This document shows, piece after piece, positions 25,254-48,032 of a stretch of DNA of 64,000 bases. A program made the position numbers and the translations under genes. A model generated the notes under the pieces. That model did no database searches, was not told where the DNA came from, and saw only the letters and a list, made by a program, of their open reading frames with translations. Position 1 is the first letter of the stretch; each line of letters starts with the position of its first letter. Origin of the DNA: an uncultured Acidobacteriota bacterium (GTDB taxonomy: Bacteria > Acidobacteriota > UBA6911); NCBI GenBank assembly GCA_963761825.1, contig CAVXIH010000005.1, positions 74,992 through 138,991 of the forward strand. Reading direction: 5' to 3'.

Positions 25254-25367
25254 GTCGGAATCGGTATCGCTATCGGGTATCGCGATCGGCTTTAAAATCC
25301 AGGCCTCAAAGATTTCAATCCGACTCCCGATTGCGATTTCCGATACCGATAGCGATACCGATTCCGA
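25254..25367. repeat. Hexamer palindromic element, copy 1
   Basis: (ATCGGT/ATCGCT)n ... (ACCGAT/AGCGAT)n with a perfect 22-bp stem, 25255-25276 pairing with 25346-25367. Confidence 0.9.
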
Positions 25368-25373
25368 ATAACT

Positions 25374-26853
25374 CTAGAATGGATTTTCGGTCGGGTAGTA
25401 AACTCCCTTAGGGCAATTAAAGAAGAGATCGTCGACCCCCAGCATTCTGCAGGCAGCAAAGAGCGTTTTGCCCGCATGCTTGAATGCGATCGCCGTATGA
25501 TGCGGAAATCTCTTTTCAATCAATACGTGACGATAAAAGCGTCCCATCTCGCGGATCGCAAACACGCCGATGGATCCGAAGGACCGGGGATTCACGTCAA
25601 GCACCTCCCCGTTCGCCATATAGGCCTGGATGCGCGATTCCGGCGTCGATTGAATACGGAAGACAGAAATCGGACCGGCTTTGATCCTTCCTTCCAGCGT
25701 TCCTCTCGTAATGTCCGGCTTGTGCTCCGGCTCCATCAGGCGATGCATGATCAGCTGATGCTGCATGGACGGGTTCATGAGGCAAGCGGACGATGTGTTC
25801 CCGCAGTGAAAGCCCATCCACAGGTCGGTGAGCGCATAATCGCCGATAGCCTTTTTGCATTCGGCATACATGTCCTTAGGAACGGAGTTATTGATGTCCA
25901 GGATGGCCGGCGGCAATTCCGTCGCACAGATGGACATATACTCGCTCAGCGCTCCGTAGATATCGGATTCGCAGGCAACTGGAATGCCTTTTGCCGCCAG
26001 CCGCGAGTTCATGTAGCAGGGGACATGGCCGAAGTATTTCTCGAAAGCCGGCCAGCATTTATTGGCAAATGCGACATACTGGGAAGCGCCCAGGTTTGCC
26101 TGCATATATTTCTCGAGGGCCGCTTCGTATTGAGCGACCTTTTCATTCAGGTCCGGATACGTATTGCCCTGTCCCAGTTCTTTCGCTATTTCGGCGGCAA
26201 TGCGTTTCACATCGGAACTCCCCTTTTCCGCCTGCACAAGATCGAAAAGGTCCAGTTCGCTGTTCTCCATGATCTCGACACCCAGGTCAAACAGAGGCTG
26301 AATCGGCGCGTGGCAGGTCAGGAAGTCAAACGGCCGCGGCCCGAAAGAGATGATTTTCAAGATTGCGGACGCCGATGACCGTACGCGCAACCGGCAGGAA
26401 CTCTGCCAGCATTGCGGCAATATCGTTGGGATCCCCGACGGGATATTCCGGGATGTGGGGCCGGAGGCGCCGCAGCCCGATGTTGTAGGATGCGCTGAGC
26501 ATGCCGCAATAGGCATCGCCACGGCCATTGATCAGGTCGTTGCCGCTATCTTCGGCAGCGGCAACGAACATGACCGGGCCGGAAAATTTCTGGGCCAGCA
26601 GCGTGGTGGGCCCTTCCGGGCCGAAGTTTCCCAGGTAGATCGCCAGCGCATTGATTTTTTTCTGTTCCACCTCATCCAGCGCCTTTAAGACATCACGCTC
26701 ATTCTCAATGATCGTCTCAATTTCGACGACCGGGACCTTGAGCTCTTTGCAGGCGGCTACTACATTGCTCCGGCGCTTGCGGGAAAGCTCGATCGGGAAA
26801 CAGTCTCGGCTGACGGCGACGATACCAAGTTTGACAATAGGGATATTTTGCAT
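25374..26853 (-). CDS. L-fucose/L-arabinose isomerase-related protein (COG2407-like); frameshift near 26340
   Basis: LGIVAVSRDCFP, YLGNFGPE, DAYCGML, VACESDIYGAL, FHCGN, FPHH. Confidence 0.8.
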
Positions 26854-26859
26854 GAAGGG

Positions 26860-27558
26860 TCATCCTTGCTTTTTCTGGCCGTAATAGGCATGCGGCCCGT
26901 GTTTTCGTTGATAATGCTTCTCCTGAATATGCGAGGGGAGCGCTGCGATGGAAGGATTCAGCAGGAGCGATCCGAGAGCCATTTGGGCAACTCTCTCCAG
27001 GATCAGACTGTTATGAACGGCATTTCCGGAGCTTCTCCCCCAGACAAACGGAGCGTGCCCCGCCACCAGTACCCCCGGCATGGCCAATGGATCCATCCCG
27101 GCAAACCGCTCGATGATGATCAGGCCCGTTGCGCGCTCATACCCGTCACGGACCTCGTCCGCCGTAAGAAATCGGGTCACAGGGACCGGGCCGTTGAAAT
27201 GATCCGCGTGCGTCGTTCCGAGGCACGGGATCTCGCGGCAAGCCTGTGCGAACATGGTGGCATACTCGCTGTGCGTGTGCACAATTCCGCCGATGCCCGG
27301 AAAAGCCTTGTAGAGCTCCAGGTGCGTCGGCGTGTCCGATGAGGGGCGAAGATTCCCGTCCACAACATTTCCATCCAGATCTACGACAATCATGTCTTTG
27401 GCCGTCATGGATTCATATTCGACGCCGCTGGGTTTGATCACGACGCGGCCTTCGGAACGATCGATGCCGCTAACGTTTCCCCACGTTCGGGTTACTAGTC
27501 CGTAGCGGACCAGTTCCATGTTGGCCTGAAAAACTTTTTTCTTAAGCGGGTCCAACAT
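26860..27558 (-). CDS. araD: L-ribulose-5-phosphate 4-epimerase
   Basis: TWGNVSGID, IKPSGV, PSSDTPTH, HTHS, GTTHADHF, HGPHAYYGQ. Confidence 0.95.
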   Translation of the reverse strand: MLDPLKKKVFQANMELVRYGLVTRTWGNVSGIDRSEGRVVIKPSGVEYESMTAKDMIVVDLDGNVVDGNLRPSSDTPTHLELYKAFPGIGGIVHTHSEYATMFAQACREIPCLGTTHADHFNGPVPVTRFLTADEVRDGYERATGLIIIERFAGMDPLAMPGVLVAGHAPFVWGRSSGNAVHNSLILERVAQMALGSLLLNPSIAALPSHIQEKHYQRKHGPHAYYGQKKQG

Positions 27559-29260
27559 CAGAGTGATCTCCGCACTTCATCCCGGATATCCAGCAGTTCT
27601 TTCATAAGGGAGTGCATCCCCCCCGACCATTGCCGGGTGCCATAGGCATCATGCAGCCGGCGGTACAGCGCGTAAAGCCTTTGATAAATCCTATGATTTC
27701 TTTCGACCGGCCGGTATTCTCTGCCGCTTCCTACCATGGCTTTCTGCGCCGCGACCACAGAGTCATAGCCGCCCGCTTCCTCTCCTGCTGCGACCGCCGC
27801 AAAGACGGCGGCGCCCAAGGCGGGGGTCTGTTCGCTGCGGGAGATCTTCATGGGACGGCCGGCAATATCGGCATAGATCTGCATCATCAGGGCATTTTTG
27901 GAAGCAAGGCCGCCGCAGTTGACGACCTCTTTGATCGGCACGCCGTATTCTTCGATCCGATCAATAATGACCAGTGCTCCGAATCCGGTTGCTTCGAGCA
28001 AAGCCCGGTAAATCTCATGCGGCTGCGTGTGCAGCGTCTGGCCGATCAGCAGTCCCGCAAGCCGCGCGTCGACAAGAATTGTGCGGTTCCCGTTATTCCA
28101 GTCGAGTGCGATCAGCCCGCTCTCTCCGGGTTTCAAGCGCAGCTGCGGCTTTCTCCAGGTTCGCAAATTGTTCGTCCTGGGTCCTTCCGAATTTTTCCGG
28201 AACCAGCGTGTTCACAAACCAGAGGAAGATGTCGCCGACCGCCGACTGCCCTGCTTCGATGCCGTAATACCCGGCCATGACGGATCCGTCCACGATGCCG
28301 CAGACGCCCGGGATGTCCTGCAGCGGCTCATCGTTCGGGTGGATCATGATATCGCACGTACTCGTCCCGATGATCTTCACCAGCGTTCCCTGGGAAATCC
28401 CGGCGCCCACCGCACCCATATGTGCATCGAAGGCACCCACGGCGATCGCAACGGAAGGCGAGAGCCCGAGCCGCCGGGCCCATGCGGGCGAAAGCGTGCC
28501 GGCCCGACGATCGGCAGTATAGCACGGTATCGTACAGTCGCGGGCGCAGAGATCCGAGTCCCGGCGAAAGCTTTTCGAGGAATTCGCTGTCCGGCAATCC
28601 CTTCCATGCCGGATTGAAGATGGCTTTGTGCCCCGCCGCGCATACGCTGCGTTTCACCTTCTGCGGCGACAACTCCCCGGTCAGGACGGCAGGAATCCAG
28701 TCGCAGATTTCAATCCAGCTGGCAGCGGCTTCGAATACATCCTTTGCCACATTTTTGCAGTGCAGGATCTTGCTCCACCACCATTCCGACGAATACGTGC
28801 CGCCGATTTTCGAGAGGTACTGCGGGCGTATTTCGGATGCCAGCTGCGTAATTTGCGCGGCCTCCCTATAGCCGGTGTGATCTTTCCAAAGCCACACCAT
28901 TGCCGCGGGATCGTCTTTGAATCTTTGCTGGAAACACAGAGCCTGCCCCTCTGCATCCACCGGCATCGGACTGCTTCCCGTTGTGTCAATTCCAATGCCG
29001 ATGATGTCCGAGGATGAAATTGCGGATCGGACTCCTTCCCCTTTTGAATGGCGCCCCGGATCGTTGCCTCGATCCCGAGAAGATAGTCCGCCGGATTCTG
29101 CCTTGCCAGATTAGGATCCGAAAGCATCAATGATGACACCATCGTTTCCCGAAGGGTACGGGAAAACATGGCTGGCGATCTCCATGCCCGAAGTCACATC
29201 TACCAGAAGCGAACGGCAGGAATTCGTACCGAAGTCGAGCCCTAATACGTAGCGAGACAT
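27558..29260 (-). CDS. araB: Ribulokinase (FGGY family), several frameshifts
   Basis: Reconstructed start [14 protein letters not shown]; [53 protein letters not shown]. Confidence 0.9.
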
Positions 29261-29272
29261 GTTCGTTAATTC

Positions 29273-31027
29273 TTATCCGACAAAATAGAGGTAAGCAGCC
29301 ACGATCAATGCAACGACCACGACAGACAGAATCACATCGATCGCTTTCCAGCTTTCCCTGGAAATCCGCTTGTCTTCCGTGGACCTCGTTGCGTAGGTTA
29401 AGCCGCCTATTTTTGCATAATCAGGCGCAGCGGTCATATAGCTCACGATAATCATTACGGCCGCTGAAATTATCAGGATCACTCCGCTGTAGTACTGAAA
29501 GAAAATATTATTCACTATCCACAGGAATGAGCCCTGCTCATATTGGAAACCCTGCATTAGCTTGACCGGAGTATCGATCGCCAGGCGGACAACGCCGAGG
29601 GCAAACCCGGTAATTAGCGTCCAGAGGCAGCCCTTGGCATTCATTCTTTTGATGAATACGCCCAGGAAGAAAACGACAAAGATCGGCGGCGCGAGGTATC
29701 CCTGAATGCCCTGCAAGTAGTCATATAGGCCGCGTCCCCCGCGGATTACAGGAATCCAGCAGATGCCGATAAGGACCATGACCGCGGTGGCGATTCTGCC
29801 CACCCAAACCAGCCGTTCCTGCGATACGCCGCGGCGCAGGCGTCCATAAAAGTCGATAGTGAACAAAGTGGCGCTGGCATTGAATGCGCCTGCCAAAGAA
29901 CTCATCAGCGCCGCGAGCAGGCCTGCAACCACGATGCCGCGAATCCCGACGGGAAGAATATGCGCGACCATGAGCGGAAACGCCTGTTGCGCATTATCAC
30001 GGATAATCTTGCCGTCCGCCCCGATCAGGAGATTGTGGAAGCCGGGCACTTTATTTGAAATCGCCAGCGCGTAGCAGATGATGCCGGGGATAATAAAGAT
30101 GAACACGGGGAGCAGTTTAAAGAATGCCGCCGCGATGGATCCGCGCCGGGCTTCGGTCTCGTTGGGAGCGGTAAGCGTGCGCTGTACGATATACTGATCC
30201 GTGCACCAGTACCAGAGACCGATGACGGGCGCGCAGATGATCATTCCCAGCCAGGGATAATTGTTGTTGAAGTACCAGGCCATCTGGTGCGCGTTCTTGA
30301 CCGGAGCCCAGGTGCTCTCAAGGCCCGCCGGTACCATCGGCTTCCATAAATTAAACATGTCCGTTGGAACGATGGCTCTCAATTCCGACCATCCGCCCAG
30401 CGCGTGAAGGCCGAATATGGTTACCAGCGCCGATCCGATGATCAGCACAATCGTCTGCATCGCTTCCGTATAGGCCACGGCACTCATGCCGCCGACGATC
30501 GTATATAAACCGGTGATGATGACGACAAGAAGAGAGCCGATCCAGAAACTGTCCAATCCCCAGAGATTGACTTCAGGCAGCAGCACCGCGAAAACCACTC
30601 CGCCGGCGAAAATGCCTACAGCTATCTTCGTTAGGATGTAAGCAACCAGGGAGATGACGGAGAGGACCGTGCGCGCCATCGGGGAGAACCGCCGTTCGAG
30701 AAACTCCGGCATGGTGAACACTTTCGACCGCATATAAAAAGGAACCATCACCCATCCCAGGACCAGCAGGCACCACGCGTGCAACTCGTAGTGCGCCATG
30801 GCCACGCCGTCCGTCGCTCCCGAAGCCGCCAACCCCACGAGGTGCTCCGAGCCGATATTCGAAGCAAAGATCGAAGCCCCGATGACGAACCATCCCAGTT
30901 CTCTTCCTGCCAGAAAATAGCTATCCGAAGTCTTTTTCTGCTTTTTGGCAACCCATACAACAATTCCCGCAATCAAAGCGAAATAGGCAAGAATAACGAT
31001 CCAGTCAATAGGCTGCAGGATGCTCAT
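29273..31027 (-). CDS. Sodium:solute symporter (SGLT-like sugar transporter)
   Basis: YFLAGR, ASNIGSEHLVGLA, WYWCTDQYIVQR, AALMSSLA. Confidence 0.93.
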   Translation of the reverse strand: MSILQPIDWIVILAYFALIAGIVVWVAKKQKKTSDSYFLAGRELGWFVIGASIFASNIGSEHLVGLAASGATDGVAMAHYELHAWCLLVLGWVMVPFYMRSKVFTMPEFLERRFSPMARTVLSVISLVAYILTKIAVGIFAGGVVFAVLLPEVNLWGLDSFWIGSLLVVIITGLYTIVGGMSAVAYTEAMQTIVLIIGSALVTIFGLHALGGWSELRAIVPTDMFNLWKPMVPAGLESTWAPVKNAHQMAWYFNNNYPWLGMIICAPVIGLWYWCTDQYIVQRTLTAPNETEARRGSIAAAFFKLLPVFIFIIPGIICYALAISNKVPGFHNLLIGADGKIIRDNAQQAFPLMVAHILPVGIRGIVVAGLLAALMSSLAGAFNASATLFTIDFYGRLRRGVSQERLVWVGRIATAVMVLIGICWIPVIRGGRGLYDYLQGIQGYLAPPIFVVFFLGVFIKRMNAKGCLWTLITGFALGVVRLAIDTPVKLMQGFQYEQGSFLWIVNNIFFQYYSGVILIISAAVMIIVSYMTAAPDYAKIGGLTYATRSTEDKRISRESWKAIDVILSVVVVALIVAAYLYFVG

Positions 31028-31048
31028 GCAATGCTCTCCTCTTAAAAG

Positions 31049-32185
31049 CTATCGGGTCGAAAATTGATAGACGGTGGTCTGATGATATCTTTGTCCCGGC
31101 CGCAGCGTCACAGACGGGAATTGCGGCTTGTTCGGAGAATCGGGAAAAGCCTGAGTTTCCAGGCAGAGGCCGCTTCTTTGCTTATAGGCTACACCATTTT
31201 TCCCCTTCGCCGATCCGTCAAGGAAGTTGCCGGAGTAAAACTGAAGCCCCGGCTGGTCGGTAAAAATGGTCATCATGCGTCCGCTGCCGACTTCATATAG
31301 CTCGGCGACTTTGCGCACGTTGCCGACGCTGCCTTTCAGAACCCAGTTGTGATCGTAGCCCTTGCCAAAGGCCAGCTGCTCATTCTGGTCGTTGATATGC
31401 GCTCCGATCGCCATGGGGGAGCGGAAATCCATCGGCGTGTCTGCCACGTTTTCAATCTGTCCGGTCGGAATGAGTCCCTTGTCCACCGGAGTGATGCCGT
31501 CAGATTCGATCATCAAAAGATGATCGAGAATCGTTTTGTCAAACGAGCCGGAGAGATTGAAATAGGAGTGCTGCGTCGGATTCAGAATCGTGGGCTTGTC
31601 CGTCGTTCCTTCATAGTCGATGCGCAGTTCGTTTTTGTCAGTCAGGGTATAGGTAACCTTCAGCGTCACAGTTCCGGGATACCCTTCCTCCCCGTCACGG
31701 CTGACATATTGGAGCTGGAGAGATGATTCCGCGGAATCGCCGGCTTTTGCATCCCATAGGACTTTGTTGAAGCCTGTTTTCCCGCCATGAAGATGGTTCT
31801 CGCCGTCGTTGACCGTTAGTTGATAGTCTTTCCCATCCAGCTGAAATCGTCCTTTACCAATGCGGTTGCCGTAGCGTCCCACGATTGCCCCGAAATAGGC
31901 CGTGCCGTCAATATATCCCTGCAGAGAATCATAGCCGAGGACAATGTCCTCCATCTTCCCGTTCCGGTCGGGAACTTTGAGCGAGGTGACCGTCGCTCCA
32001 TAGCTGATGATCTGTGCGGTAACGCCGGAGCGGTTTTCGAGTGTGTATTGATGCACTTCCCGTCCGTCCGGAAGCTTGCCGAAAACAGTCGTTTTCATGG
32101 GAGGTTGGACCTTTCTGTTTGTCTGACATGCTTGTGTCGAAAAGAGAGCGAAAATGGCAATGCAGAGAATGAGCGGCCTCATCAT
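31049..32185 (-). CDS. galM: Aldose 1-epimerase (mutarotase) with signal or lipoprotein peptide
   Basis: GRYGNRI, HLHGG, TQHSYFNL, GYDHNW, QFYSGNFL, CLETQ. Confidence 0.95.
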   Translation of the reverse strand: MMRPLILCIAIFALFSTQACQTNRKVQPPMKTTVFGKLPDGREVHQYTLENRSGVTAQIISYGATVTSLKVPDRNGKMEDIVLGYDSLQGYIDGTAYFGAIVGRYGNRIGKGRFQLDGKDYQLTVNDGENHLHGGKTGFNKVLWDAKAGDSAESSLQLQYVSRDGEEGYPGTVTLKVTYTLTDKNELRIDYEGTTDKPTILNPTQHSYFNLSGSFDKTILDHLLMIESDGITPVDKGLIPTGQIENVADTPMDFRSPMAIGAHINDQNEQLAFGKGYDHNWVLKGSVGNVRKVAELYEVGSGRMMTIFTDQPGLQFYSGNFLDGSAKGKNGVAYKQRSGLCLETQAFPDSPNKPQFPSVTLRPGQRYHQTTVYQFSTR

Positions 32186-32296
32186 AAAGCATGCTCCGTT
32201 TAAGGATTAAAATTTAAAAAAAGCAGTCTGTCATATCATGCGGCGAAGGGCAATCAATTTGAGATTTCAGAGACAGGGCAACAGATTTCAATATAT

Positions 32297-32441
32297 GTCG
32301 GTATCGGAATCGGTATCGCTATCGGTATCGGCAATCGCAATCGGCGATTTAGACTCGAGCCTTATGATCTAATAACGATACGCGATCGCGATCTCGACTG
32401 CCGATTGCGATTGCGATACCGATTCCGATAGCGATAGCGAC
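32297..32441. repeat. Hexamer palindromic element, copy 2
   Basis: GTCGGTATCGGAATCGGTATCGCT... spacer ...CCGATTCCGATAGCGATAGCGAC. Confidence 0.9.
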
Positions 32442-32535
32442 TCTATGGAATGGTGCTTTGCTGTAGCGTTTCAATCCGTCATGTTACAGCAACTAATTAT
32501 GCTAAGATGAGGCAGGGTTTGAAGAAGGAGGAGGC

Positions 32536-34362
32536 ATGAGGAAGATTTTGCAGGGGAATGAGGCCATCGCTCGAGGAGCATGGGAAGCGGGAGTGACGGT
32601 AGGATGCGCCTATCCCGGAACGCCCAGCAGCGAAATCCTGGCGGAATTGTCAAAATATCCGGAAGTGTACACCGAATGGTCGCCGAATGAAAAAGTCGCG
32701 GTGGAGGTTGCGCACGGCGCTTCCTTCGCAGGCGGTCGCGCCATCGCTTGCATGAAACATGTCGGCCTGAATGTGGCGGCCGATCCTTTCATGACCATTT
32801 CGTATACGGGCGTGAAGGGGGGCTTTGTCATCGTGGTGGCGGACGATCCGGGACAGCACATCTTCGCAGAACGAGCAGGACAGCCGTCACTGGACTCGAT
32901 TCGGCAAGGTGCCCATGCTCGAACCGGCGGACGCCCAGGAGTGCAGCGATTTCACGCGGATTGCCTTTGACATGAGCGAAAGGTTCGATACGCCGGTGCT
33001 GCTCCGGAGCGAGACGCGGGTTTCCCATTGCGATTCGGCCGTAGAACTGGGCGAGAGAAAGGAATCGGGACCATTCCGAAGGGACTCGACAAAAAGGACA
33101 TTCCCAAAATGGTGATGGTCCCCATGTACGCCAGAGTCCGCAGAGTCCTGGTTGAGGAAAGAATCGGCAAACTCGCCAGCCTATGCCGACGAAGAATTCC
33201 CCTACAACGTCATGGAGATCAACGATCCTTCCATCGGGTTTATTGCTTCCGGAGTCACATACCTCCATACGAAAGAAGTGTTCCCTCAGTACTCTTTCTT
33301 AAAGCTGGGCATGACGTGGCCATTGCCGAAAAAGCTGATTGCGGAATTTTTTAAGAAAGTCAAAAAGGTGATCGTGGTCGAAGAGCTGGATCCGTTCTTT
33401 GAAACGGAAATCCGCGCGATGGGATTCAAGGTGCGCCACGGCAAGGATCTCATCCCGGCGATCGGCGAGCTGACGCCGACCATCATTGAACAATCGCTTT
33501 CCAAGGCCGTGACGGGAAAGCGCATCAAGCCTGCAAAACCGGCTGCAAGCCTGGAAGAATTGCCCAAGAGGCCACCGAATCTGTGCGCCGGATGTTCGCA
33601 CCGACCGCTGTTTTGTTGCGTTGAAAAAGCTCGGCCTTTTCGTCTTCGGAGATATCGGCTGCTATGCGCTGGCGGTCTCTCCGCCTCTGTCCGCCATGCA
33701 TTTCTCGACCTGCATGGGCGCCGGAGTCGGCGGCGCCTATGGCGCAGGCAAAGTGCTCGGCAGCGAGGGACTCGGAAAGATTTGCGCCGTGCTGGGAGAC
33801 TCGACTTTTCTGCACAGCGGCATCGGTCCCTTGATGGACACGGTTTACAACGGAGGCTATTCGACAACGATTATCCTGGACAACCGGATTACCGCCATGA
33901 CCGGACAGCAGGAACACCCGGGAACAGGATATACGATAAAGGGCGATCCTGCGGATATGCGTCGATTACGCGCAACTGGCGAAAGCCGTGGGCGTCAAAA
34001 ATGTTCGCATGATCGATCCGTACAATATCAAAGAGACAATCGACGTGATCCGCGAAGAAGTGAACCGAGATGAGCCATCCGTCATCATCACACAAAACAG
34101 CCCGTGCATTCTTCTCCGCCGGGACAAACCGCGCGAACGGTTTAAGCACCCGACGTATCGCATCGATAACGACACCTGCACGGGATGCAAAATGTGCCTG
34201 AATGTGAATTGTCCCGCCATAAGCTGGGTGGAGAACCCGGGCACTTCAAAGAGCGGCAGCAAGAGAAAAGGCACATCGTTTATCAATCAGGATCAATGCG
34301 TCGGCTGCGCCGTGTGTTCCCAGACATGTGAGTTTGAAAGCATATTGCCGAATGAGCAATGA
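32536..34362 (+). CDS. iorA: Indolepyruvate:ferredoxin oxidoreductase alpha subunit, frameshifted
   Basis: GNEAIARGA, YPGTPSSE, NEKVA, KHVGLNVAADP, CAGCSHR, GDIGCY, GDSTFLHSG, two C-terminal 4Fe-4S motifs. Confidence 0.93.
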
Positions 34363-34373
34363 GGAGACGAGCA

Positions 34374-34973: not shown

Positions 34974-34990
34974 CGAATCCTTAGTGCATT

Positions 34991-35104
34991 TCGCTATCGG
35001 AATCGGTATCAGAATCGCTATCGGAAATCGGGATTAAGGGTCGATGGCAACAAAACCGAATCCCGATTGCGATTCTCGATACCGATACCGATTCCGATTC
35101 CGAT
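34991..35104. repeat. Hexamer palindromic element, copy 3
   Basis: ATCGGA/ATCGGT left arm and ACCGAT/TCCGAT right arm between convergent iorB and CoA-transferase genes. Confidence 0.88.
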
Positions 35105-35127
35105 TTTTTTCGAGATGGGTTTCCTGC

Positions 35128-36479: not shown

Positions 36480-36552
36480 CCTCAAATCCTCACATCTATG
36501 AAATTAAAAGTGCAACAAACTATACAACTGAAACGCCACCAATGCCGCGTTA

Positions 36553-39137: not shown

Positions 39138-39144
39138 GGAAAAA

Positions 39145-39183
39145 GCCACAAATCACACCAATCAAATTTGTGCAATTCGTGGC
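39145..39183. repeat. Compact palindrome with roughly 9-nt-period units between convergent genes
   Basis: GCCACAAATCACACCAAT / ATTTGTGCAATTCGTGGC, abutting the stop codon of the DUF2238-like gene. Confidence 0.65.
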
Positions 39184-39923
39184 TATTTTTTCTCTATGTC
39201 GGAAGGACCAGATTCGAGCTTTCCGGCTCGAGCAGGCGATTTCAACCGCAGCCACTCCTGCAGCTTCCGCTCACCGAGCGGGCGATCGCCGCGGGGGATG
39301 CGGAAGCTTAGCCGGAATTCCTTGGCAAACTCCGGATTCAACTTCCAATTGACGAGTGCGATGATAATCATGGCCAGAAGCGCGCCTATTCCCGCCATCG
39401 CCATGTCTTTCTGCGCGTCCCAGATGTCACCCTGCGCACCCAGGAACGCAACGCCGGCCGCCGGATCCACATTCCGCGCAACCCACCATTCGATGATTTC
39501 GTACGCCGCCGAAAACGAAAGAGTCACGTCCAGAGGCAGGTAGAATCCCCAGAAACCCTTCACCTGCGAAATGCGCAGGAACACTTCGCGCATCGGATAG
39601 GCCAGCAAAAATCCGAAGCTGAAATGGACCAGCCGGTCGTACATATTGCGCTCGGCTCCGAGCCAGTTCTTCAGCGTGTCCCCGAAGGGAACCTCCGCAT
39701 ACGTGTAATGCGACCCGATCACATGCAGGATCATGAAGAGCGTAATCAGCGTATACGATGTGTCCGAAAGCTTGAAGTAGCGGCCGGAAATCAGGATGAT
39801 CGGCAGGAAAATAAATACCAGATAATTTTCCAGCAGCCAGTCATGGGGATAGGTTGGGTGTATCGCAGCCGCTATCCATACGGCGATAAAGACCAGGATC
39901 AGAGAGCACTTATAAACTGACAT
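39183..39923 (-). CDS. DUF2238 (YjdF-like) membrane protein
   Basis: DWLLEN, LHVIGSHYTYAEVPFG, RNMYDRLVHF, YEIIEW, QGDIWDAQKDM. Confidence 0.88.
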   Translation of the reverse strand: MSVYKCSLILVFIAVWIAAAIHPTYPHDWLLENYLVFIFLPIILISGRYFKLSDTSYTLITLFMILHVIGSHYTYAEVPFGDTLKNWLGAERNMYDRLVHFSFGFLLAYPMREVFLRISQVKGFWGFYLPLDVTLSFSAAYEIIEWWVARNVDPAAGVAFLGAQGDIWDAQKDMAMAGIGALLAMIIIALVNWKLNPEFAKEFRLSFRIPRGDRPLGERKLQEWLRLKSPARAGKLESGPSDIEKK

Positions 39924-40020
39924 GGCAGCGTTTCCTCCATCCAAAAAATAGGTGCGGTGAATGGTTCCGATACACGGATACAGGTTCTCTCAATTTCTAT
40001 GCGTTCCCTCACTATTTCCC

Positions 40021-40499
40021 TTATTTGTCTCTTTCTTCCTTTGCATTGCGAAGCCGGGATTCCCTCCGGCTTCGCGCTTCCCGGTTTCGCCGCTTCTCAT
40101 CCTCCGTTTCCAGAATGATCTGCGGCACCTGTGTCGGACTCCCTTTGGCATCCAGGCTACAAAAGAGAGATACGCCGAAGCCGTATGCCGGACCTCGCCC
40201 GTCATGAAATTTTCTGCTTCCACGCGCACGCCCACTTCCATCGAAGTTCTTCCTGTATAGTTCACCGAAGCCAGCAGCCTGAGGAGATCTCCCACATACA
40301 CCGGCGAGTAGAAGTCCACTCGGTCGATCGATGCCGTGACCGCGTTGGTATTCGCGTGGCGGCTGGCGACGATGCCGGCGGTGTTGTCGATATCCTTCAA
40401 TATGACTCCGCCATGAACGTTCCCAGCCAGGTTGGCGTCCTGGTGCGTCATTTGATACACGATGGTAATCGTGCTGTCTTTCACCGGCTTGGCTTGCAT
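40021..40499 (-). CDS. Acyl-CoA thioesterase (hotdog fold); frameshift near 40160
   Basis: DANLAGNVHGG, TASID, GRTSMEVGVRVEAE; the alternate frame gives the C-terminus VPQIILETEDEKRR. Confidence 0.9.
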
Positions 40500-40645
40500 T
40501 ATAAAACCCTTTCCCTGCTGAACATCTGAATGTGCATATTTCGATAGCTGCCATTGTACAAAAGCGCGGATCGTCCTGTCGCTAAATTTATCGGGAAAAT
40601 CTTGGAGGAGGAAAAAATACTGCGGATTTGCCTTCAACGCAAGAT

Positions 40646-40766
40646 ATCGGTATCGGAATCGCTATCGGTATCGCCAATCGCAATCGGAAATCGGCATTTC
40701 AATCTCAAATCAATAAAGCCGAATCCCGATAGCGATTGCGATACCGATTCCGATAGCGATACCGAC
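40646..40766. repeat. Hexamer palindromic element, copy 4
   Basis: ATCGGTATCGGAATCGCT... spacer ...CCGATAGCGATACCGAC. Confidence 0.9.
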
Positions 40767-40780
40767 GTGTGCGGTTGTGC

Positions 40781-42554
40781 CTATTTCAGGTTGAATACGA
40801 CGGTCACCATGGCCTGTGCGGCAACGGGCTCTCCATTCAAAAGCGTTGGGCTGTATTGCCATTGCTTGACGGCATCCATAGCGGCCGCCTCGAGGATCGG
40901 ATTATTTCCTTCCATAGCCCTCAATTCGTAAACAAATCCTTCCTCATTGATGACTATCGTGAGCCTGACAGTTCCCTGGATACCTCCCCGCAGTGCCTGC
41001 TCCGGATAGACGGGTTCAACTCGATGAATCAGTTTGGATTCCTGAACCATGTTGCCAATGCGGATCGGCTCCGTGCGCGGAGGCTTAATAGGATTGTCGG
41101 CGATTTGCTCTCGAGCAGGAGGAGGAACGGCAGCTTTTGGCCGCTCCGTCATCCCCCCCACAACAGATCCGGGAACAGAGGTGCGCGGCGTACTCACAGA
41201 GGGCTTTGCGTCCCCTGTTCTTTCCCAAAAGGCAGCAGTCTCTTTACTGAGAAAATAGCACGTCACGTTAGTGACAACTGAAACAGGATTGCCATTCAAA
41301 AACGTCGGGCTATAGCGCCATTGTGTTACGGCATCGAATGCAGATTTTATGAGCATCGGGTGCCCTGCCTGCGCCACTATTCTGTAGACTTGTCCTTCCT
41401 CATTAATGATAAACCCTAAGTCTGACTATTCCATTCAATCCAACGCGTTTGGCCTCTTCTGGATAAATCGGCTCGACCTTGAAAATCAGTTTTGATTCCT
41501 GAGTATCTCCGGCGACTTGGATTGGCGTTGTCTGTGGAGCTTTGATTTCGGCACTGGATCTCTGTTCCTGCGCAAGCACGGGTGCGCCCGTTAAAGGGAA
41601 CCACCCGGCAGCCAGATATACGGTCCCCAATAAAATCAAAAAAATGCTGATCATGCTGACAGCCAGTCTCGATCGGCTCATGGAAACCTCCTTTAGCAGC
41701 AGCGCCACGCGCTGCACGAGATGACTTTCTTTTAAAAACAGCGGCGCCGGAACGGCTCGCGGACGCCCCTGCGCCCGTGCAAATTCCAGCAGCGAATCCA
41801 GATATGGCTGCTTGTTGCCGGTTAATCGCACAACTTCGTAGTCGACTGCCTGCTCCCGGCTGAGTTGGATGCGGTTCAGCAACCACCACACTCCCGGATG
41901 GAACCAGAAGAGCGAGCCAACGACTTCTTCCACAACAATAAGGATCCAATCATAGCGACGCACATGCAGAAGCTCATGACAGAGGACTGCTTTCTGGCAC
42001 GGTTCGCTCAGTTTCTTGAACGACAACGGAAGAATGATTCTTGGCGAGCGGAAACCGAAAGTGACGGGACTGTCGATCTCGTCGGAAAGAAGCAGAGGAA
42101 CTCGAACACCCGTGCGCCATTGCATATCCCGGACTGAGGCGTGTTCTTCAAGAAACATGCGCGATTTGCGCTGAAAAAGGTGCAACCGCAAAAATCCGAG
42201 TATCAGCCACGCCAGCCTTAGGAGAATACCGGCTGCCAAAATAATCCCGAGAACCTCCCATGGAAATTGCATCGGCGGATTGAGACCCATCGGAACCGCA
42301 ATATGCGATGCTCTGACGGTGCCGGTTCCATTCCCGGAGATAGCCGTACCGAGGACTGGGCGATTCCAGCGCTGCAGAAAAGGCAGCGCTATGCATGCCA
42401 GCAGCAGGATTTGCCAATAAATCAGCGTTACTCGCGGAAGACGCAACCGGAAGAGATACGCCAGCAATGTCCCCGCCGCAGCCAGAATGGCGATTTGAAG
42501 GCTATACGCGATAAGATTCGAAATCCAGAAAGGAAGTGCCACAGCACCCTCCAT
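40781..42554 (-). CDS. BlaR1-like M56 peptidase fused to two TonB C-terminal domains; frameshift near 41400
   Basis: SPVTFG, CHELLH (HExxH), NPxxW-like HPGVWW, EQAVD; two TonB-C repeats ending QWRYSPTFLNG and QWQYSPTLLNG. Confidence 0.85.
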
Positions 42555-42582
42555 TGATAATTTCAGTAATCTCTACTGAAAT

Positions 42583-42610
42583 GACTGCCGACTAACGACT
42601 GCCGACTGCC
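42583..42610. repeat. Heptamer half array after the blaI stop codon
   Basis: GACTGCC-GACTAAC-GACTGCC-GACTGCC; the 18-mer GCCGACTAACGACTGCCG is identical to 6165-6182. Confidence 0.75.
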
Positions 42611-42616
42611 CGCTAT

Positions 42617-42991
42617 TCACTTCTTCTCCCGAATCATCCTGGTAACCGCTTCCAGGTCCTTTTCCGATAAGCGCCGCTCCTGAACCAGGTGCGCGAGCAA
42701 GGGCTCTGCGGATCCGTTGAATACCCGGTCCAGGAAATCTTTGACGATTTTGCGGAGAGCCCGATTCTGGGGCTCGACGGCCTGATAGACATGCGCGCGC
42801 CCTTCTGTCCGCTTTTTCAGGTGCCCTCTTGCTTCCATCGTCTTCATAGTGGTCATGACGGTCGTGTAGGCTATGGGGCGCTGCACGCGCAGCGCTTCGT
42901 ATACGTCGCGCACCGTCGCATCTCCCCGCTGCCACACTACCTTCATGATTTCTATTTGCTGTGTCGTAAGATGCAATTCTTTTGGTCTCAT
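42617..42991 (-). CDS. BlaI/MecI/CopY family repressor
   Basis: EIMKVVW, YTTVMT, RAHVY, FLDRVFNGS. Confidence 0.93.
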   Translation of the reverse strand: MRPKELHLTTQQIEIMKVVWQRGDATVRDVYEALRVQRPIAYTTVMTTMKTMEARGHLKKRTEGRAHVYQAVEPQNRALRKIVKDFLDRVFNGSAEPLLAHLVQERRLSEKDLEAVTRMIREKK

Positions 42992-43028
42992 AGTACTATT
43001 TAATAGTACTACTCTTCATATATGTCAA
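42991..43028 (-). promoter_or_regulatory. Putative BlaI-type operator and promoter at the blaI start codon
   Basis: Perfect 10-bp inverted repeat TAGTACTATT-T-AATAGTACTA (42991-43011); on the minus strand TTGACA (43028-43023), 17 nt, then TATTAA. Confidence 0.65.
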
Positions 43029-43357
43029 GAAATATTTTTCGGCTGCGCTTCTTGATGTCCTATAAAAATCCGGTCCGCATCCGGACTAGGACTGAAACCC
43101 ATCCAAATCAGGAATCACTCTCTTCATTAAGTGGATTCCGGCTTTGGCTTTATAAAATTAAGGGCTCAGAGGGCCATCTTTCTGTTAAACTTGGGTAGCA
43201 CTTGAACACGAAATCCAAAGACAAGGAACCTTTACTCCCTGCTGGAAGCGCCTTACGGCCCGCCATCAGGCTGGGCAAAGCAATAGCTTCCTGTTCTGGA
43301 ACACTGGACCATTTGCAGTAAGCAATAGAAATCGATCCGAACGGATCGGCAGGAATC

Positions 43358-44533
43358 GTGACGAACATGGAACCGTTTTTACCGGAACGCATCTTCTCCG
43401 TCCCGACGGATAGGAATCAGGACTCTCCTCGGGTCCTGATTTCCCCTCACCGCTACATCCAGGGGAAGGATGTTCTCGATCATCTGGGACGCTACCTCTC
43501 GATAGTGCCAAGCCGACGTCCCGTCGCGCTGATGACGGAAGGCAGCAGGCAACGGGTTGGCGCAAAAATTGAAGCCAGCCTTAAACAGGCCGGCATCGAG
43601 CCTCACATAGAAATATTTCGCGGCGAGTGCTCATATGAAGAAGTAGAACGCATCGCCGGTGCAGTCCACCAATCCGGATGGGCGGCGGATTCCGTTATTG
43701 CGGCCGGCGGCGGAAAATGCATCGACGCCGGCAAATGCGTCGGCTTTCGCCTCGGAGTGCCAGCAGTCATCTGCCCCACTATTGCTTCAACCGACGCTCC
43801 CTGCTCCGCCGTTTCGGTGATGTACACGCCAGAAGGTGTGGGCATAGGACCGGAGTTCTTCCCCAACAGCCCGGCGCTGGTGGTCGTTGACACGCGGCTC
43901 ATCGCGTCCTCTCCCATACGGCATCTCATCGCAGGCATGGGGGACGCCATTGCCACTTTCTACGAAGCCCGCACCTGCTTCAGAAATCCTTCCGGCAGAA
44001 ACAATGTTGGCGCGCGCATTACGATCGCGGCTCTGGCATTGGCTGAATTGTGCGCGAAAACCGTATTTGACGACGGACGAAAAGCGATCGAGGCCGTCCG
44101 GCGTGGGGAAATCGACTCGTCCGTCGAAAACATCATCGAGGCGAATACGCTTTTGAGCGGCGTGGGCTTCGAAAGCGGAGGATTGTCGATCGCCCACGCA
44201 ATGGCTGCCGGATTCACCGTGATCCCGACTCTGCACCGCGACTTTCTTCATGGAGAACTTGTCGGCATCGGCCTCGTCGCCCAGCTGATACTGGAACGGG
44301 AACGGGACGAAGCCCGAAAAGTTCTCAGCTTTCTCAAGGACGTGGGGTTGCCGACTACTCTCGATCAGCTTCAATTAAATATTCAGCGCGACGCAACAGC
44401 TCTGATGGAAGCTATGACCGCCGCAATGAAATCGCCCTTCGCCAACACTGAACCTTTCGAGGTCACCCCAGAGTCTCTGTTCTCTGCACTTATCGGGGCC
44501 GATCGGATGGCGGGGGAATCTTTTAGCCGCTAG
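43358..44533 (+). CDS. gldA: Glycerol dehydrogenase (Fe-ADH family)
   Basis: SPHRYIQG, GGGKCIDAGK, PTIASTDAPCS, AGMGDA, SGVGFESGG, HGELV. Confidence 0.9.
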   Translation: MTNMEPFLPERIFSVPTDRNQDSPRVLISPHRYIQGKDVLDHLGRYLSIVPSRRPVALMTEGSRQRVGAKIEASLKQAGIEPHIEIFRGECSYEEVERIAGAVHQSGWAADSVIAAGGGKCIDAGKCVGFRLGVPAVICPTIASTDAPCSAVSVMYTPEGVGIGPEFFPNSPALVVVDTRLIASSPIRHLIAGMGDAIATFYEARTCFRNPSGRNNVGARITIAALALAELCAKTVFDDGRKAIEAVRRGEIDSSVENIIEANTLLSGVGFESGGLSIAHAMAAGFTVIPTLHRDFLHGELVGIGLVAQLILERERDEARKVLSFLKDVGLPTTLDQLQLNIQRDATALMEAMTAAMKSPFANTEPFEVTPESLFSALIGADRMAGESFSR

Positions 44534-44562
44534 CCTCCCCGTTCAATGCAAACTGTCACTAG

Positions 44563-44727
44563 TCGTATCAGTATCGCTATCGGTATCGCTATCGGTATCG
44601 CTATCGGTATCGGTATCGCGATGGAAAATCGGCAGTGGAAGACCGCAGCAAAAGCGCAAAGACCGATAGCGATTTGCGATTCCGATTTGCGATACCGATA
44701 CCGATAGCGATATACCGATAGCGATAT
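44563..44727. repeat. Hexamer palindromic element, copy 5 (longest)
   Basis: (GTATCGCTATCG)n left arm; (CCGATA/GCGATA)n right arm; between convergent genes. Confidence 0.9.
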
Positions 44728-44744
44728 AGATGGAGCTTGGCTGG

Positions 44745-45938
44745 CTATTGATTGCGGAGGCAATAGAGATGGGAATCGCTGCGTAGGAAGATGGCTCCGT
44801 CGGACACGGCCATCGAAGCGAGCGTCTGGCCATTCAGTTGATTCGTGGCGAGTATTTTAAACTCCTTCCCGGGCGCAATAACAACCGATTGGCCGTCCTC
44901 GCTCAGAAAATAAATCCGGCCATCCGCATATAGTGGCGAAGCGGAATGATTCCCGCCTATGCGCTGCTGCCAATGCTCTTTTCCCGTACTCGCATCCAAG
45001 CAGGTGGCGATTCCGTTGTCGTTGATCAAGTACAGTTCTTCTCCTACAAGAAGTGGCGAAGGCGTCAGCGGCGCGCCCCGGTCACGCCTCCAGATAACGT
45101 GCGACTTTGTAACGTCTCCGCGGCCATCCACGCGGATAGCCAAAAGCGATGGCTGCTGAAATCCGGTGCAAATAAACACCAGGCCGTTCCCAAATACCGG
45201 CCGCGGCACGTTGGAAAATCCATCACCATAAAGCACATGCCAGATTTCCTTGCCCGTGCGCGGTTCATACGCGACAACCCGGAAGGCACCAGCGCTTATC
45301 AACTGGTCCCCGCCCGCCGGACGCACTATCAAAGGCGTCGAATACGCATGGCTTGCTTTTCGGTATTGTTTCCATTGAATACCGCCGGTCGATTTGTCCA
45401 GTGCCGCGACATACTGGACCGACATGCCATCACAGTTCACGACCAGCAAATTTTCGTAGATAACCGGGGAGCCTCCCGGCCCATGCTGGCCGTTGTCATA
45501 CTCGAGCCGCGTCCGCCAGAGAATCTTGCCGGACTGCGAAATGCAGGCAGTGCCAAATGCGCCGAAGTGCACATAGACCCTGTTTCCATCCAGCACCGGC
45601 GTTGGCGAGGCAAGGCTGTTCTTTGCGTTGACGCGTCCGGGCACATTTAGGCGAAAAACTTCGACATTCTGTAGAATAGCACCGCTCTTGCGATCCACGC
45701 AGATGGCGCGCAGCGATTTCCCCTCTTCTGTCGCCGTCGTCAGCCAGATCTGGTCTCCCTGGATTGCAGGGGAAGACCATCCCCGCCCCGGGATCGCGGT
45801 TTTCCACCGGACATTCCTGTTTTCACTCCAGGTTAGAGGAAGCCCGCTTTCATCCGAAAGACCTTGCCCGGTTGGTCCGCGGAACTCCGGCCAATCCCGG
45901 GCAAGAAAGACCATAGCAAGGAAATATAGAATTTTCAT
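44745..45938 (-). CDS. Secreted PQQ-like beta-propeller protein (BamB-like repeat family)
   Basis: DWPEFRGP, WSSP, repeated SP motifs and Trp docking motifs. Confidence 0.85.
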   Translation of the reverse strand: MKILYFLAMVFLARDWPEFRGPTGQGLSDESGLPLTWSENRNVRWKTAIPGRGWSSPAIQGDQIWLTTATEEGKSLRAICVDRKSGAILQNVEVFRLNVPGRVNAKNSLASPTPVLDGNRVYVHFGAFGTACISQSGKILWRTRLEYDNGQHGPGGSPVIYENLLVVNCDGMSVQYVAALDKSTGGIQWKQYRKASHAYSTPLIVRPAGGDQLISAGAFRVVAYEPRTGKEIWHVLYGDGFSNVPRPVFGNGLVFICTGFQQPSLLAIRVDGRGDVTKSHVIWRRDRGAPLTPSPLLVGEELYLINDNGIATCLDASTGKEHWQQRIGGNHSASPLYADGRIYFLSEDGQSVVIAPGKEFKILATNQLNGQTLASMAVSDGAIFLRSDSHLYCLRNQ

Positions 45939-47651
45939 TGCCGGATTCCTCCGCTTCGTGATGCATCTGCCTGCAACGGCCGCAGCATGCTGATTGCCGT
46001 TCCCGCAGCGAGAACCACGGCAACGCCGACAACATTATAGTAGAGCCATGAAATTGAAGAGTAATAGGCCACTGCGAAGACCGCGATCTCCCCGGCGATC
46101 AGTCCATAAAAAGCGCCCGTCCCGTTACAGCGGCGCACCATGAACGCGAGGAGAAACACGCCGAGGATCGGCCCATAGAAATAGGATCCCACTTTGTTGA
46201 CCGCCTCGATCAGGGATCCCAGCTTGCCGGCATAGCAGGCAGCGCCGGTTGCAAAAGCGCCCCAAAATAACGTGGCCCCCCGGGATACCCAGAGATAATG
46301 CGCATCGCCTGCCGCTCTTGCAGAAGTACCGTTTGTAGAAATCGATAATCGTTGCGCTCGCCAGCGAATTAATTTCGGACGAAAAGCTGGACATGGCTGC
46401 GGCGAAAATCACGGCAAGCATGATGCCCAGAATTCCGGCAGGCGCATGCTGGATCAGGAAAGAAGGGAAAATATAGTTCACTTCGCTCGAAGGTTCCGAT
46501 CCCGTCACAGATTTCAGAAGTGCGCGATTCTCATTCTTCAGTTCCCGAAATGCCGCATCGGCTTCACGGTACCGTCCCTCGGCGGCCCTCAGAGCAACTG
46601 CGTTGTGGCTCTTCCGGGCTTCGCTCAGGGAAAGAGCCTCTACGCGTCTTTCCTGGAAAACCGCGTCATACCTCTTCTCCAGCTCCGCATACCGGCTCCC
46701 TGCCTTCTGCATCAGGACACTCTGGTTCGCCGCGCTGAAATTCAGCGGAGGCTTGATAAAGTGATACGACACAAACATCAGCACACCGACGGCAAGGATC
46801 AGAAACTGCATCGGGACCTTCAGGAATGCATTCAACATAAGACTCATGCGGCTCTCTGTGAGCGACCGCCCCGTGAGATAGCGCTGTACCTGGCTCTGAT
46901 CGCATCCGAAGTAGGAGAGCGCCAGGAAAAAGCCTCCCAACATCCCCGAGAGTAGCGTGTAGGAATTTTTCAAATCCATGGAGAGATCGATGCTGTTCCA
47001 TTTGCCTTCAAGCCCGGCGAGATGCACCGCATCGCCGATGGAATAGTTCGCCGGGAACTTGGACACGAAAAGCGCGATCGCGATAAAAATGCCTGCGAAC
47101 ATCAGCAGCATTTGTTTTGCGTCGATCATGATCACGGCTTTGTTGCCGCCGATCGTCGTGTAGATGATCGTAGAAGCGCCCATGATCATAATGGTAATCA
47201 ACTCATTCCAACCGAAAATGACGGCGAGGATGATCGAAGGGGCATACAAAACAAAACTCACCGCGAGGCCACGGGATATGAGGAAGATAAAACTGGTCAG
47301 ACTGCGCGTTTTGGCGTCGAAGCGCCTTTCGAGATATTCGTAGGCCGTGAAGACATTGGCCCTATAGAAAAAGGGGACAAATGTCATGCACAGGATGACC
47401 ATGACAAGAGGTTGCGGCAGATAGACCTGTATGAACGACATCCCCGCGTTGTAGGCCTGGCCGGTGGTCCCGATATACGTGATGGCGCTGGCCTGCGTGG
47501 CCATGACGGAAAGCCCGACTGCCCACCAGCGCAGGGAGCGCTTGCCGCGGAAATAATCATCCAGGTTTTTATTCTTTTTGCCGTGGCGGAAACCCTCTGC
47601 CAGGACATAGGCAAAATAGAGGATGACGATAATCCAGTCGGCAATATGCAT
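45935..47651 (-). CDS. Sodium:solute symporter; frameshift near 46300
   Basis: LSVMATQASAIT, YFGCDQSQVQRY, AAMSS, YGPILGVF. Confidence 0.9.
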
Positions 47652-47657
47652 GGCGCG

Positions 47658-47819
47658 CTAACGGTTGAATAGGACGGTCATTAGATAAAGAGCGAGCACA
47701 AGAGCACAGGTATAAACAACGACTGAAACATACAGTCGATTCCATGTGCTGAAGAATGGGGGCGGATCATCTCTCTCAGCCGCAGTGCGCTCAGGGTCAT
47801 GATCTTCAGGGATTTTCAC
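47658..47819 (-). CDS. Small (53 aa) single-TM protein upstream of the SSS gene; absent from the ORF track
   Basis: GGAGG RBS, GTG start, MKIPEDHDPERTAAERDDPPPFFSTWNRLYVSVVVYTCALVLALYLMTVLFNR, stop 6 nt before the SSS ATG. Confidence 0.75.
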   Translation of the reverse strand: MKIPEDHDPERTAAERDDPPPFFSTWNRLYVSVVVYTCALVLALYLMTVLFNR

Positions 47820-47931
47820 GCAACCTCCGGAATCCCGTAGTGTTACTACACAATACTGTCTGTCTCATCATAATCATTCCGGCAGGATGAAACAATGATT
47901 CTTCAAATGTAGCGCGGCATGAACAGGGTCC

Positions 47932-48032
47932 GTCGGGATCGGTATCGCTATCGGGATCGGTATCGGGAATCGCAGTCGGTTGTCAGCTTTTCGATCGCGA
48001 TTTGCGATACCGATAGCGATTCCGATACCGAC
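47932..48032. repeat. Hexamer palindromic element, copy 6
   Basis: GTCGGGATCGGTATCGCT... spacer ...CCGATAGCGATTCCGATACCGAC. Confidence 0.9.

Follow-up and report, generated by a model that had tools for sequence, protein, structure and literature searches.

What are the six palindromes, each assembled from hexanucleotide units, that lie between the genes of a 64,000-nucleotide stretch of an uncultured Acidobacteriota bacterium, and how did they come to be there? The stretch, referred to as the window, spans positions 74,992 to 138,991 of contig CAVXIH010000005.1 (C5:74992-138991) and belongs to an assembly of 4.6 Mb with a G + C content of 54%. In the following, G000 is the genome under study, C-numbers are its contigs, other G-numbers are its relatives within the genus and P stands for a whole hexamer palindrome. 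All six elements (e1 to e6) share one architecture, namely a left arm (ATCGSN)n with units such as ATCGGT, ATCGCT and ATCGGA, a centre of 15–60 nt and a right arm (NSCGAT)n with units such as ACCGAT, AGCGAT and TCCGAT.

A previous interpretation made from the letters of the window (the sequence-only reading) had described the six as a possible new family of spreading units, with a small cargo gene and Y1 transposases as candidate partners. It is supported in part: a spreading family with a four-helix-bundle cargo was found, whereas the link to Y1 transposases was not, and the copies proved to be inherited mostly vertically. Based on the results presented here, the six elements are probably gene-less ('solo') members of an intervening-sequence-like family of cassettes that carry a gene for a four-helix-bundle protein.

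Association with four-helix-bundle genes

A profile search of the whole of G000 with PF05635 (23S-rRNA-IVS-protein, four-helix-bundle) yielded eight genes, all of which sit between inverted arrays of short tandem units. In an automated flanking test this arrangement was recognised for seven of the eight, compared to 1.6% of all predicted genes. The arms of six of the genes are built from heptamers, octamers or 14-mers, and the other two, on contigs C4 and C13, each lie between two complete hexamer palindromes (P-gene-P). Found among the genes located between two nearby palindromes, these two are copies of one 126-aa four-helix-bundle protein. Their P-gene-P units (~640 bp) can be aligned from end to end, with no homology beyond the outer boundaries of the palindromes. 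A broken gene of the same hexamer-armed subfamily, with several in-frame stops, was observed at C15:2269-2631; it is preceded upstream by a right arm and followed downstream by a complete GGGGTC/ATCGGT palindrome. The cargo gene for which the sequence-only reading had named four-helix-bundle genes as a candidate is thus present between hexamer palindromes, in two intact cassettes and one pseudogene. Cassette palindromes and solo palindromes also have loops in common. The cassette loop type AGTTG..AAAAAACCGAAT recurs in the solo copies C13:202983, C13:186567 and C10:184491, while its 3' part, AAAACCGAATCCCGAT, is also found in e4 and on the 3' side of the loop of e3.

The hexamer family is linked to the four-helix-bundle gene in other phyla as well as in G000. 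Arms of the ATCG type with a period of six accompany the C4/C13 subfamily at 10–11 of 13 loci in other Acidobacteriota, in G015, G007 and G035 of the same genus, in a metagenome-assembled genome of the Desulfobacterales and on contigs with proteins labelled Chlorobiales and Bacteroidota. Homologues of the subfamily were taken as the best 120 of 5366 clusters at E <= 1e-10. In 42 of these closest 120 homologues the protein ends in an (xD)n tail of three or more repeats, which is the NSC-GAT right arm in translation; other homologues end in S-E, S-V or S-L repeats, which correspond to the ATCGSN arm in its second frame. The reading of one arm as an (xD)n tail accounts for the period of six bases, and the association of the arms with this protein subfamily accounts for the recurrence of the unit in distant phyla. 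On the JGI metagenome contigs L221 and L222, the 3' end of the gene (right arm plus ~75 bp) is tandemly repeated three times past the stop codon.

Cassettes and solo palindromes at orthologous sites

The sequence-only reading had suggested that orthologous gaps in relatives be compared for a small cargo gene, and such a difference was found at both cassette sites. The C4 site is occupied by P-gene-P in G000, while G018, with flanks 95–97% identical, lacks the gene and has one P whose loop is of the same type; in relatives that are more distant, other sequence is present at this position. At the C13 site, P-gene-P is present in G000 and in the more distant G015. Here, a solo P is present in G005, its loop being homologous, the left arm alone in G002 and no more than a trace in G010. 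One and the same orthologous site can therefore carry P-gene-P in one species and solo P in another. Since G005 is closer to G000 than G015 is, judged by HydF identity and flank identity, the simplest reading is that G005 lost the gene by exchange between the two palindromes.

Family size and shared descent of the copies

In a strict scan of G000, 122 clusters of hexamer runs were detected. A looser scan gave 70 clean left-right elements and ~50 others, in which one arm is degenerate or the units are GGGGTC/CCCGAC. The family comprises about 100–120 copies. The order of the arms in these scans is nearly always (ATCGSN)n followed by (NSCGAT)n, the opposite order being essentially absent. Median values are 122 bp for the length, 28 nt for the loop and six units per arm, and the arms are of unequal length in 52 of the 70 clean copies. 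The inner stem tends towards ATCGCAATCGGC-TTTT…AAAA-GCCGATTGCGAT, and some copies carry ATCGCGAT inside their arms. Copies are regionally clustered, with 30% of the spacings below 6 kb compared to 18% at random (maximum 28% in 500 trials).

Loops of unlinked copies were found to be homologous: a score of at least 11 was reached by 69 pairs and by none with shuffled loops. The loop of C1:6335, for example, is the reverse complement of that of C7:271173. The loop types (GGCTGTAGCC-type, GATGATCG-type and AGTTGAAAAACAAAAAACCGAAT-type) all occur in both orientations. This homology at unlinked loci indicates that the family spread by copying and not by independent slippage, as had been claimed earlier on the basis of paired arms with shared ends.

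When compared with the shuffled-unit controls that the sequence-only reading had proposed, arms in their real unit order pair better, but only modestly (mean −55.6 vs −51.6 kcal/mol); 79% of the 70 elements beat their own unit-order shuffles, with a median z of −0.8. For a given left arm, the right arms of other copies are nearly as good pairing partners as its own, hence copy-specific co-evolution of the arms is weak at most. The stem is thus a generic ATCG/CGAT pairing, which allows any copy to pair or recombine with any other.

A signature of the cyanobacterial highly iterated palindrome (HIP1) type was considered and rejected, since GCGATCGC was counted just 237 times. The region C8:300470-301695 contains a unit of 237 bp, composed of one hexamer palindrome and ~115 bp of unique sequence, in six tandem copies. 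These are near-identical and differ mainly in the number of hexamer units, and the region represents a tandem duplication of one unit, not an array of insertions. At many loci, longest open reading frame (ORF) calls run through hexamer arms (e.g. C8:469505-469816). The arms can be read without stops as IGIAIG, SVSLSE or TDSD, which caused 29 false placements of elements 'inside' ORFs; automatic annotation likely over-extends genes at such arms.

The six elements of the window

Re-reading of the sequence confirmed an element at each of the six start positions claimed earlier (Table 1). The folds computed for their RNAs are single long hairpins. Their minimum free energies (MFE) range from −53.1 to −72.8 kcal/mol, with z between −5.6 and −9.2, and for each element none of 200 dinucleotide shuffles matched the real folding energy. 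The perfect 22-bp stem described for e1 was recovered as 22 uninterrupted pairs. The recurring termini are likewise real: GTCGG opens e1, e2 and e6, and CCGACGTGT closes e4 and e6. Genome-wide, 43 of the 70 clean copies start with [GT]TCG[GC] and 42 end with [GC]CGA[CA]. The fragment reported near position 24554 reads as a decayed right arm that is too degenerate to be detected by the genome-wide scans, and an 11/22-base tandem repeat (TCCAGGCTTTC) is located just upstream of it at 24407-24464. In agreement with the sequence-only reading, the scans showed the initial 24 kb and the final 16 kb of the window to be free of hexamer copies. An Rfam search of the window at gathering thresholds matched no family, rRNA included.

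Table 1 Hexamer elements and further tandem-unit features of the window (window coordinates)
Feature	Position	Context or sequence	Fold
e1 hexamer palindrome	25254..25370	tandem gap, HAD-hydrolase-like ORF (-) / fucose-isomerase-like gene (-)	MFE -57.7 kcal/mol, z -7.6
e2 hexamer palindrome	32297..32440	divergent gap, aldose 1-epimerase (-) / POR/TPP-enzyme gene (+)	MFE -72.8 kcal/mol, z -6.7
e3 hexamer palindrome	34991..35105	convergent gap, POR gamma (+) / CoA-transferase (-)	MFE -53.1 kcal/mol, z -5.6
e4 hexamer palindrome	40646..40770	tandem gap, thioesterase (-) / TonB gene (-)	MFE -63.5 kcal/mol, z -9.2
e5 hexamer palindrome	44563..44730	convergent gap, Fe-ADH (+) / PQQ beta-propeller (-)	MFE -71 kcal/mol, z -7.4
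e6 hexamer palindrome	47932..48032	tandem gap, downstream of hydF (-), upstream of SSF transporter (-)	MFE -55.8 kcal/mol, z -6.6
Decayed right-arm fragment	24553..24590	GCCGATACCCGATTGTGATTGGGATACC = GCCGAT ACCCGAT TGTGAT TGGGAT ACC	
Octamer-type palindrome	1763-1902	AAAGGATT/AAAGGGGT … TTTACCCC/TTTAATCC	
Heptamer-type palindrome	9333-9400	ATTGACG … CAATCGT	

The occurrence in tandem, convergent and divergent gaps noted for the window extends to the whole genome. In G000, 45 copies lie in tandem, 23 in divergent and 23 in convergent gaps, which is near the background proportions of 60/20/20%, and no gap-type bias of the hexamer elements was found.

Stems of such stability, in many copies just past stop codons (e4, e6 and e3 in the window), would also be expected if the hairpins had grown in place by slippage and been selected as terminators or mRNA-stabilising 3' structures, with no mobility and no relation to a gene. 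The fast change in unit number fits this explanation, as do the other hairpins or unit repeats that occupy the same gaps in distant relatives, as if a structure were needed there. Yet the elements are as frequent in divergent as in convergent gaps, loops at unlinked loci are homologous and one protein subfamily is accompanied by the identical unit in different phyla. Moreover, a T-run was observed after e3 only (CCGATTTTTTTCG) and the other five lack it, so that the G + C-rich stem plus U-tract of an intrinsic terminator does not describe the set. Growth in place is therefore judged to be quite unlikely.

Inheritance and change between close relatives

A comparison with 820 kb of G018, the closest relative, with a DNA identity of 92–95%, covered ~30 gaps that hold an element in G000. 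In ~22–24 of them (~75%) an element is present in the same gap of G018; among the remainder, two gaps are empty and three contain unrelated repeats. Most copies are thus positionally conserved and were mostly inherited vertically. Strictly vertical conservation, which the sequence-only reading had named as contrary to its proposal, holds for the majority but not for every copy.

Hardly any pair of G000 and G018 copies agrees in the number and order of its units, and the centres flip between these close relatives in four of 16 alignable pairs (e1, e5, e6 and C5:208543). The centre of e6 is exactly inverted in G018 (27 of 27 bases), and for e5 the flipped alignment scores 47.5 compared to 6 for the direct one. 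In e1, the loop is inverted together with the two innermost units of each arm, which indicates that the exchange occurred inside the arms. The e4 element has the same orientation in G018 and is absent from G005. The gap of e2 contains an element with an unrelated loop in G018, a decayed element in G005 and a plain hairpin in G032.

Rearrangements or islands were seen beside two of the six window copies. At the e3 site, G018 has a 9.1-kb island (G018:C10:353769-362921) between a GGGGTC-unit mini-hairpin and the right arm. Genes for a tyrosine recombinase and an XRE/HigA-like regulator are present on it, as well as an RHS-type C-terminal fragment next to which a small ORF lies. In the window, the genes for a DUF2238 membrane protein and a 4HBT thioesterase (39155-40604) are absent from G018 and G005, and the end of this indel lies 42 bp from e4.

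Such differences in gene content beside e3 and e4, together with imperfect palindromes of attC-like length between genes, would be in line with attC-like sites of a chromosomal integron that mark exchangeable cassettes. The palindrome-bearing taxa also overlap with taxa known to carry chromosomal integrons. No integrase of G000 passes the TIGR02249 cut-off, however (best score 111 bits vs 265), the neighbours of the elements are ordinary metabolic genes in mixed orientation and the ends are [GT]TCGG and CCGA[CA], without core sites of the GTTRRRY type. An integron origin is hardly credible on these grounds.

With ~100 intergenic imperfect palindromes, G000 also resembles genomes that contain repetitive extragenic palindromic (REP) sequences, or REP doublets forming hairpins (REPIN), spread by a REP-associated tyrosine (Y1) transposase (RAYT). 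Four PF01797 genes are present in G000, one of them in the window at 63014-63307 (-). None of the four has hexamer elements in its 900-bp flanks, the nearest copies being 2.4–20 kb away, which contradicts the association with Y1 transposases proposed earlier and argues that the elements do not belong to a REP/RAYT family. The elements measure 90–165 bp and are composed of tandem units, instead of 20–40 bp with a conserved 5' tetranucleotide, and they are not depleted from divergent gaps. Spread by a RAYT is accordingly considered very unlikely. The Y1 (IS200-like) gene at C6:30168-30503 is flanked by different hairpins, several of which, GC-rich and of the type CTCCGGGCTYGCRCCCGRAG, lie just upstream. 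This gene and its hairpins may represent a true REP/RAYT pair that has nothing to do with the hexamer family.

Distribution and points against a gene-bearing ancestry

Within the genus, pattern hits amount to 320 in G000, 86 in G018, 45 in G002, 40 in G005, 34 in G035, 27 in G015 and 9 in G013, and the other 23 genomes contain practically no hexamer palindromes. Among the palindrome-rich genomes are those nearest to G000 by HydF identity. The gene subfamily was found in G000, G015, G035 (broken) and G007. At least 116 stretches of public genomes are exact matches to a pattern in which a gap separates three ATCGSN units from three NSCGAT units that follow. The taxa among the matches listed are Desulfobacterales, Chromatiaceae, Thermoanaerobaculales, Verrucomicrobiota/PVC (Planctomycetota–Verrucomicrobiota–Chlamydiota), Hydrogenedentota, Binatia, Cyanophyceae, Nitrospiraceae, Planctomycetia and Fibrobacterota.

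Several of our results weigh against an origin of the window copies from gene-bearing cassettes. No PF05635 match is present on contig C5, which holds the window, and all six window copies are gene-less; they are therefore classified as solo derivatives and not as full members of the cassette family. Descent from a gene-bearing copy was shown at two sites (C4 and C13), both of them outside the window. The change at the C4 site could be a gain or a loss of the gene, and the polarity suggested for the C13 site derives from identity levels and not from a tree. In the e6 gap of 19 relatives, a four-helix-bundle gene was found in none, and an element is present only in G018 and, in decayed form, in G005. 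Solo copies outnumber gene copies by ~40 to 1. G018, G005 and G002 contain dozens of palindromes and no gene of the hexamer-armed subfamily, so that palindromes may also multiply alone. Across the genus, the co-occurrence of gene and palindromes is weak (Fisher p ~0.03, not phylogeny-corrected). Within 4 kb on either side of the 116 palindromes from other phyla, one four-helix-bundle gene was detected, which is about the chance expectation at the gene density of G000; solo forms thus dominate everywhere. Finally, the filled/empty sites C5:5943 and C7:224540 have ragged boundaries with 20–60 extra bases per side, and no target-site duplication was found at either. Insertion as units with defined ends, the view of the sequence-only reading, is not supported by these two sites, and no insertion mechanism is defined by them.

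The same counts are compatible with palindromes that are primary, either as self-multiplying units or as functional sites, such as arrays bound by the pentameric four-helix-bundle protein or by a global regulator. The gene would then be a partner or passenger, and most solo copies would never have held it. The excess of solos over gene copies, their persistence in G018, G005 and G002 without the gene and the regional clustering described above all suit this explanation. In addition, the unit differs from one four-helix-bundle subfamily to the next (heptamer, octamer or hexamer), and a study on Geobacter regards paired tandem arrays as sites for regulators (PMC2700814). A period of 6 bp, however, places successive units on different faces of B-DNA, and neither order nor number of the units is conserved even between orthologues. 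The right arm is translated as a protein tail in many homologues, which makes arm and gene one unit, and the change between P-gene-P and solo P is seen directly. A primary role of the palindromes consequently appears rather improbable, and descent from four-helix-bundle cassettes is retained as the preferred explanation.

Other tandem-unit palindromes of the genome

The hexamer elements are one class within a larger population of tandem-unit palindromes in G000. When the whole genome was analysed with Tandem Repeats Finder, 869 heptamer, 271 hexamer and 91 octamer arrays were obtained, with 188, 62 and 15 neighbouring inverted pairs of the same unit, respectively. The window itself contains one palindrome of the octamer type and one of the heptamer type (Table 1). 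To our knowledge, inverted pairs of short tandem-unit repeats have been catalogued for decades without an origin. The short tandemly repeated repetitive (STRR) sequences of cyanobacteria are one example of such repeats, and the arrays of Geobacter and Xanthomonas are others.

Proposed origin and significance

Under the preferred explanation, the family would exist in two gene-bearing layouts. In the first, a PF05635 gene would have an (ATCGSN)n leader arm on its 5' side and, on its 3' side, an (NSCGAT)n arm that is often translated as an acidic (xD)n tail; in the second, which is the one found in G000, the gene lies between two complete, directly repeated palindromes. Recombination between the two P copies would remove the gene and leave one P, as in the formation of a solo long terminal repeat (LTR), and the reverse reaction would insert a circle of gene plus P into any resident P. 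The solo hairpins could then persist in intergenic DNA by vertical descent, with slippage of the 6-base units as a probable cause of fast evolution and unequal arms, and exchange between the two arms as a probable cause of flipped centres. Each window copy would once have held the gene or would derive from a copy that did.

RNase III is encoded in G000, and in Coxiella it excises an S23p-bearing intervening sequence (IVS) with a 28-bp terminal stem (PMC4990558). Given these two facts, the elements, as parts of neighbouring transcripts, may form long double-stranded stems open to cleavage by RNase III, or structures that protect 3' ends. The family as such would seem to be selfish or nearly neutral rather than regulatory.

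A bolder proposal, which we put forward tentatively and regard as doubtful, is that four-helix-bundle genes and palindromes form a transposase-free self-propagating system across bacterial phyla. A circle of the gene and one palindrome would leave its site and, because all arms are mutually compatible, could re-enter at any solo palindrome. The ~100 solos per genome would then serve as a network of landing pads and recombination hot spots, the 23S rRNA IVS would be copies that settled in rRNA and the pentameric protein would recognise the arms. We know of no role outside diversity-generating retroelements (DGRs) for the four-helix-bundle family of the '23S rRNA IVS protein', of which Avd, a DGR accessory protein, is a member.

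Treating repeats and gene as one unit, with solo palindromes that replace P-gene-P in close relatives, provides a common and testable frame for the repeats and the protein family. For annotation, it points to ~100 loci per genome at which long inverted repeats can flip and ORF callers over-extend.

Comparison with known systems

Paired inverted arrays have been published before: in Geobacter metallireducens they consist of tandem hepta-, octa- and nonanucleotides (PMC2700814), in Xanthomonas of GGGAATC in inverted pairs (PMC4692102). The claim of a possible new family thus stands for the hexamer form and the link to a gene, but not for paired inverted tandem arrays as such. The arrays of these two papers resemble ours in that they are intergenic pairs of short arrays on opposite strands, can form stem-loops and occur in tens of copies per genome, and in that position and type are kept between related species while the unit number varies. 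Their units and periods are different, and the Xanthomonas unit forms G-quadruplexes, whereas ATCGSN is without G-tracts. The arrays are read there as regulator sites or quadruplexes, and no associated gene family is named in the passages searched; the link to PF05635 and the flipping of centres appear only here. A search of the literature on STRR or heptamers and on four-helix-bundle genes with repeats (Geobacter, Xanthomonas, Beggiatoaceae and Coxiella) retrieved neither hexamer palindromes nor a gene link, and a search for the letters of the repeats gave chance matches only. In the literature searched, the PF05635-repeat link, the hexamer form and the origin as solo palindromes were therefore not found, while arrays and ORF-bearing IVS are both known.

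A close counterpart is the IVS in the 23S rRNA of Coxiella burnetii and Leptospira, in which a protein of the same family (S23p = PF05635) is encoded in the loop of a long stem of terminal inverted repeats (PMC4990558). As in our elements, short tandem units, heptamers in the case of Coxiella, adjoin the ORF and vary in number from strain to strain, the stem is retained when the ORF decays, and present or past mobility has been proposed with no enzyme known (PMC4990558). The IVS are located in helix 25 or 45 of the 23S rRNA, whereas our elements lie between protein-coding genes. The latter also differ by arms of 6-base units, one of which may encode a protein tail, by a gene placed between two whole palindromes and by six window copies without any ORF. 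Processing by RNase III was shown in Coxiella and is a prediction for G000.

Compared to REP/REPIN-RAYT systems, the elements are similar in their abundance, intergenic position, imperfect palindromic form and mostly vertical inheritance, and in that they far outnumber their partner genes. They are three to five times longer, consist of tandem units and show no bias against divergent gaps; their partner is not a Y1 transposase but a cargo between the repeats that has no known catalytic activity. In transposable elements of the miniature inverted-repeat type (MITEs), too, inverted repeats would correspond to the arms, but the two filled/empty sites are ragged and lack a duplication.

For the flipping of centres, a parallel is offered by the hairpin-associated minute inversions in non-coding chloroplast DNA, reportedly described by Kelchner and Wendel in 1996, in which the loop of a hairpin is said to flip repeatedly between close relatives via exchange of the stem arms. 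Those concern an organelle and short stems, whereas arms of 40–55 bp composed of repeat units offer many registers for exchange.

Solo LTRs form by recombination between direct terminal repeats. As proposed for the C4 and C13 cassettes, a repeat-gene-repeat structure is reduced to one repeat that stays in place, and solo copies far exceed full elements. In our family the repeat is itself a palindrome of 120 bp and neither reverse transcriptase nor integrase is involved, so that the likeness is one of mechanism and not of relationship.

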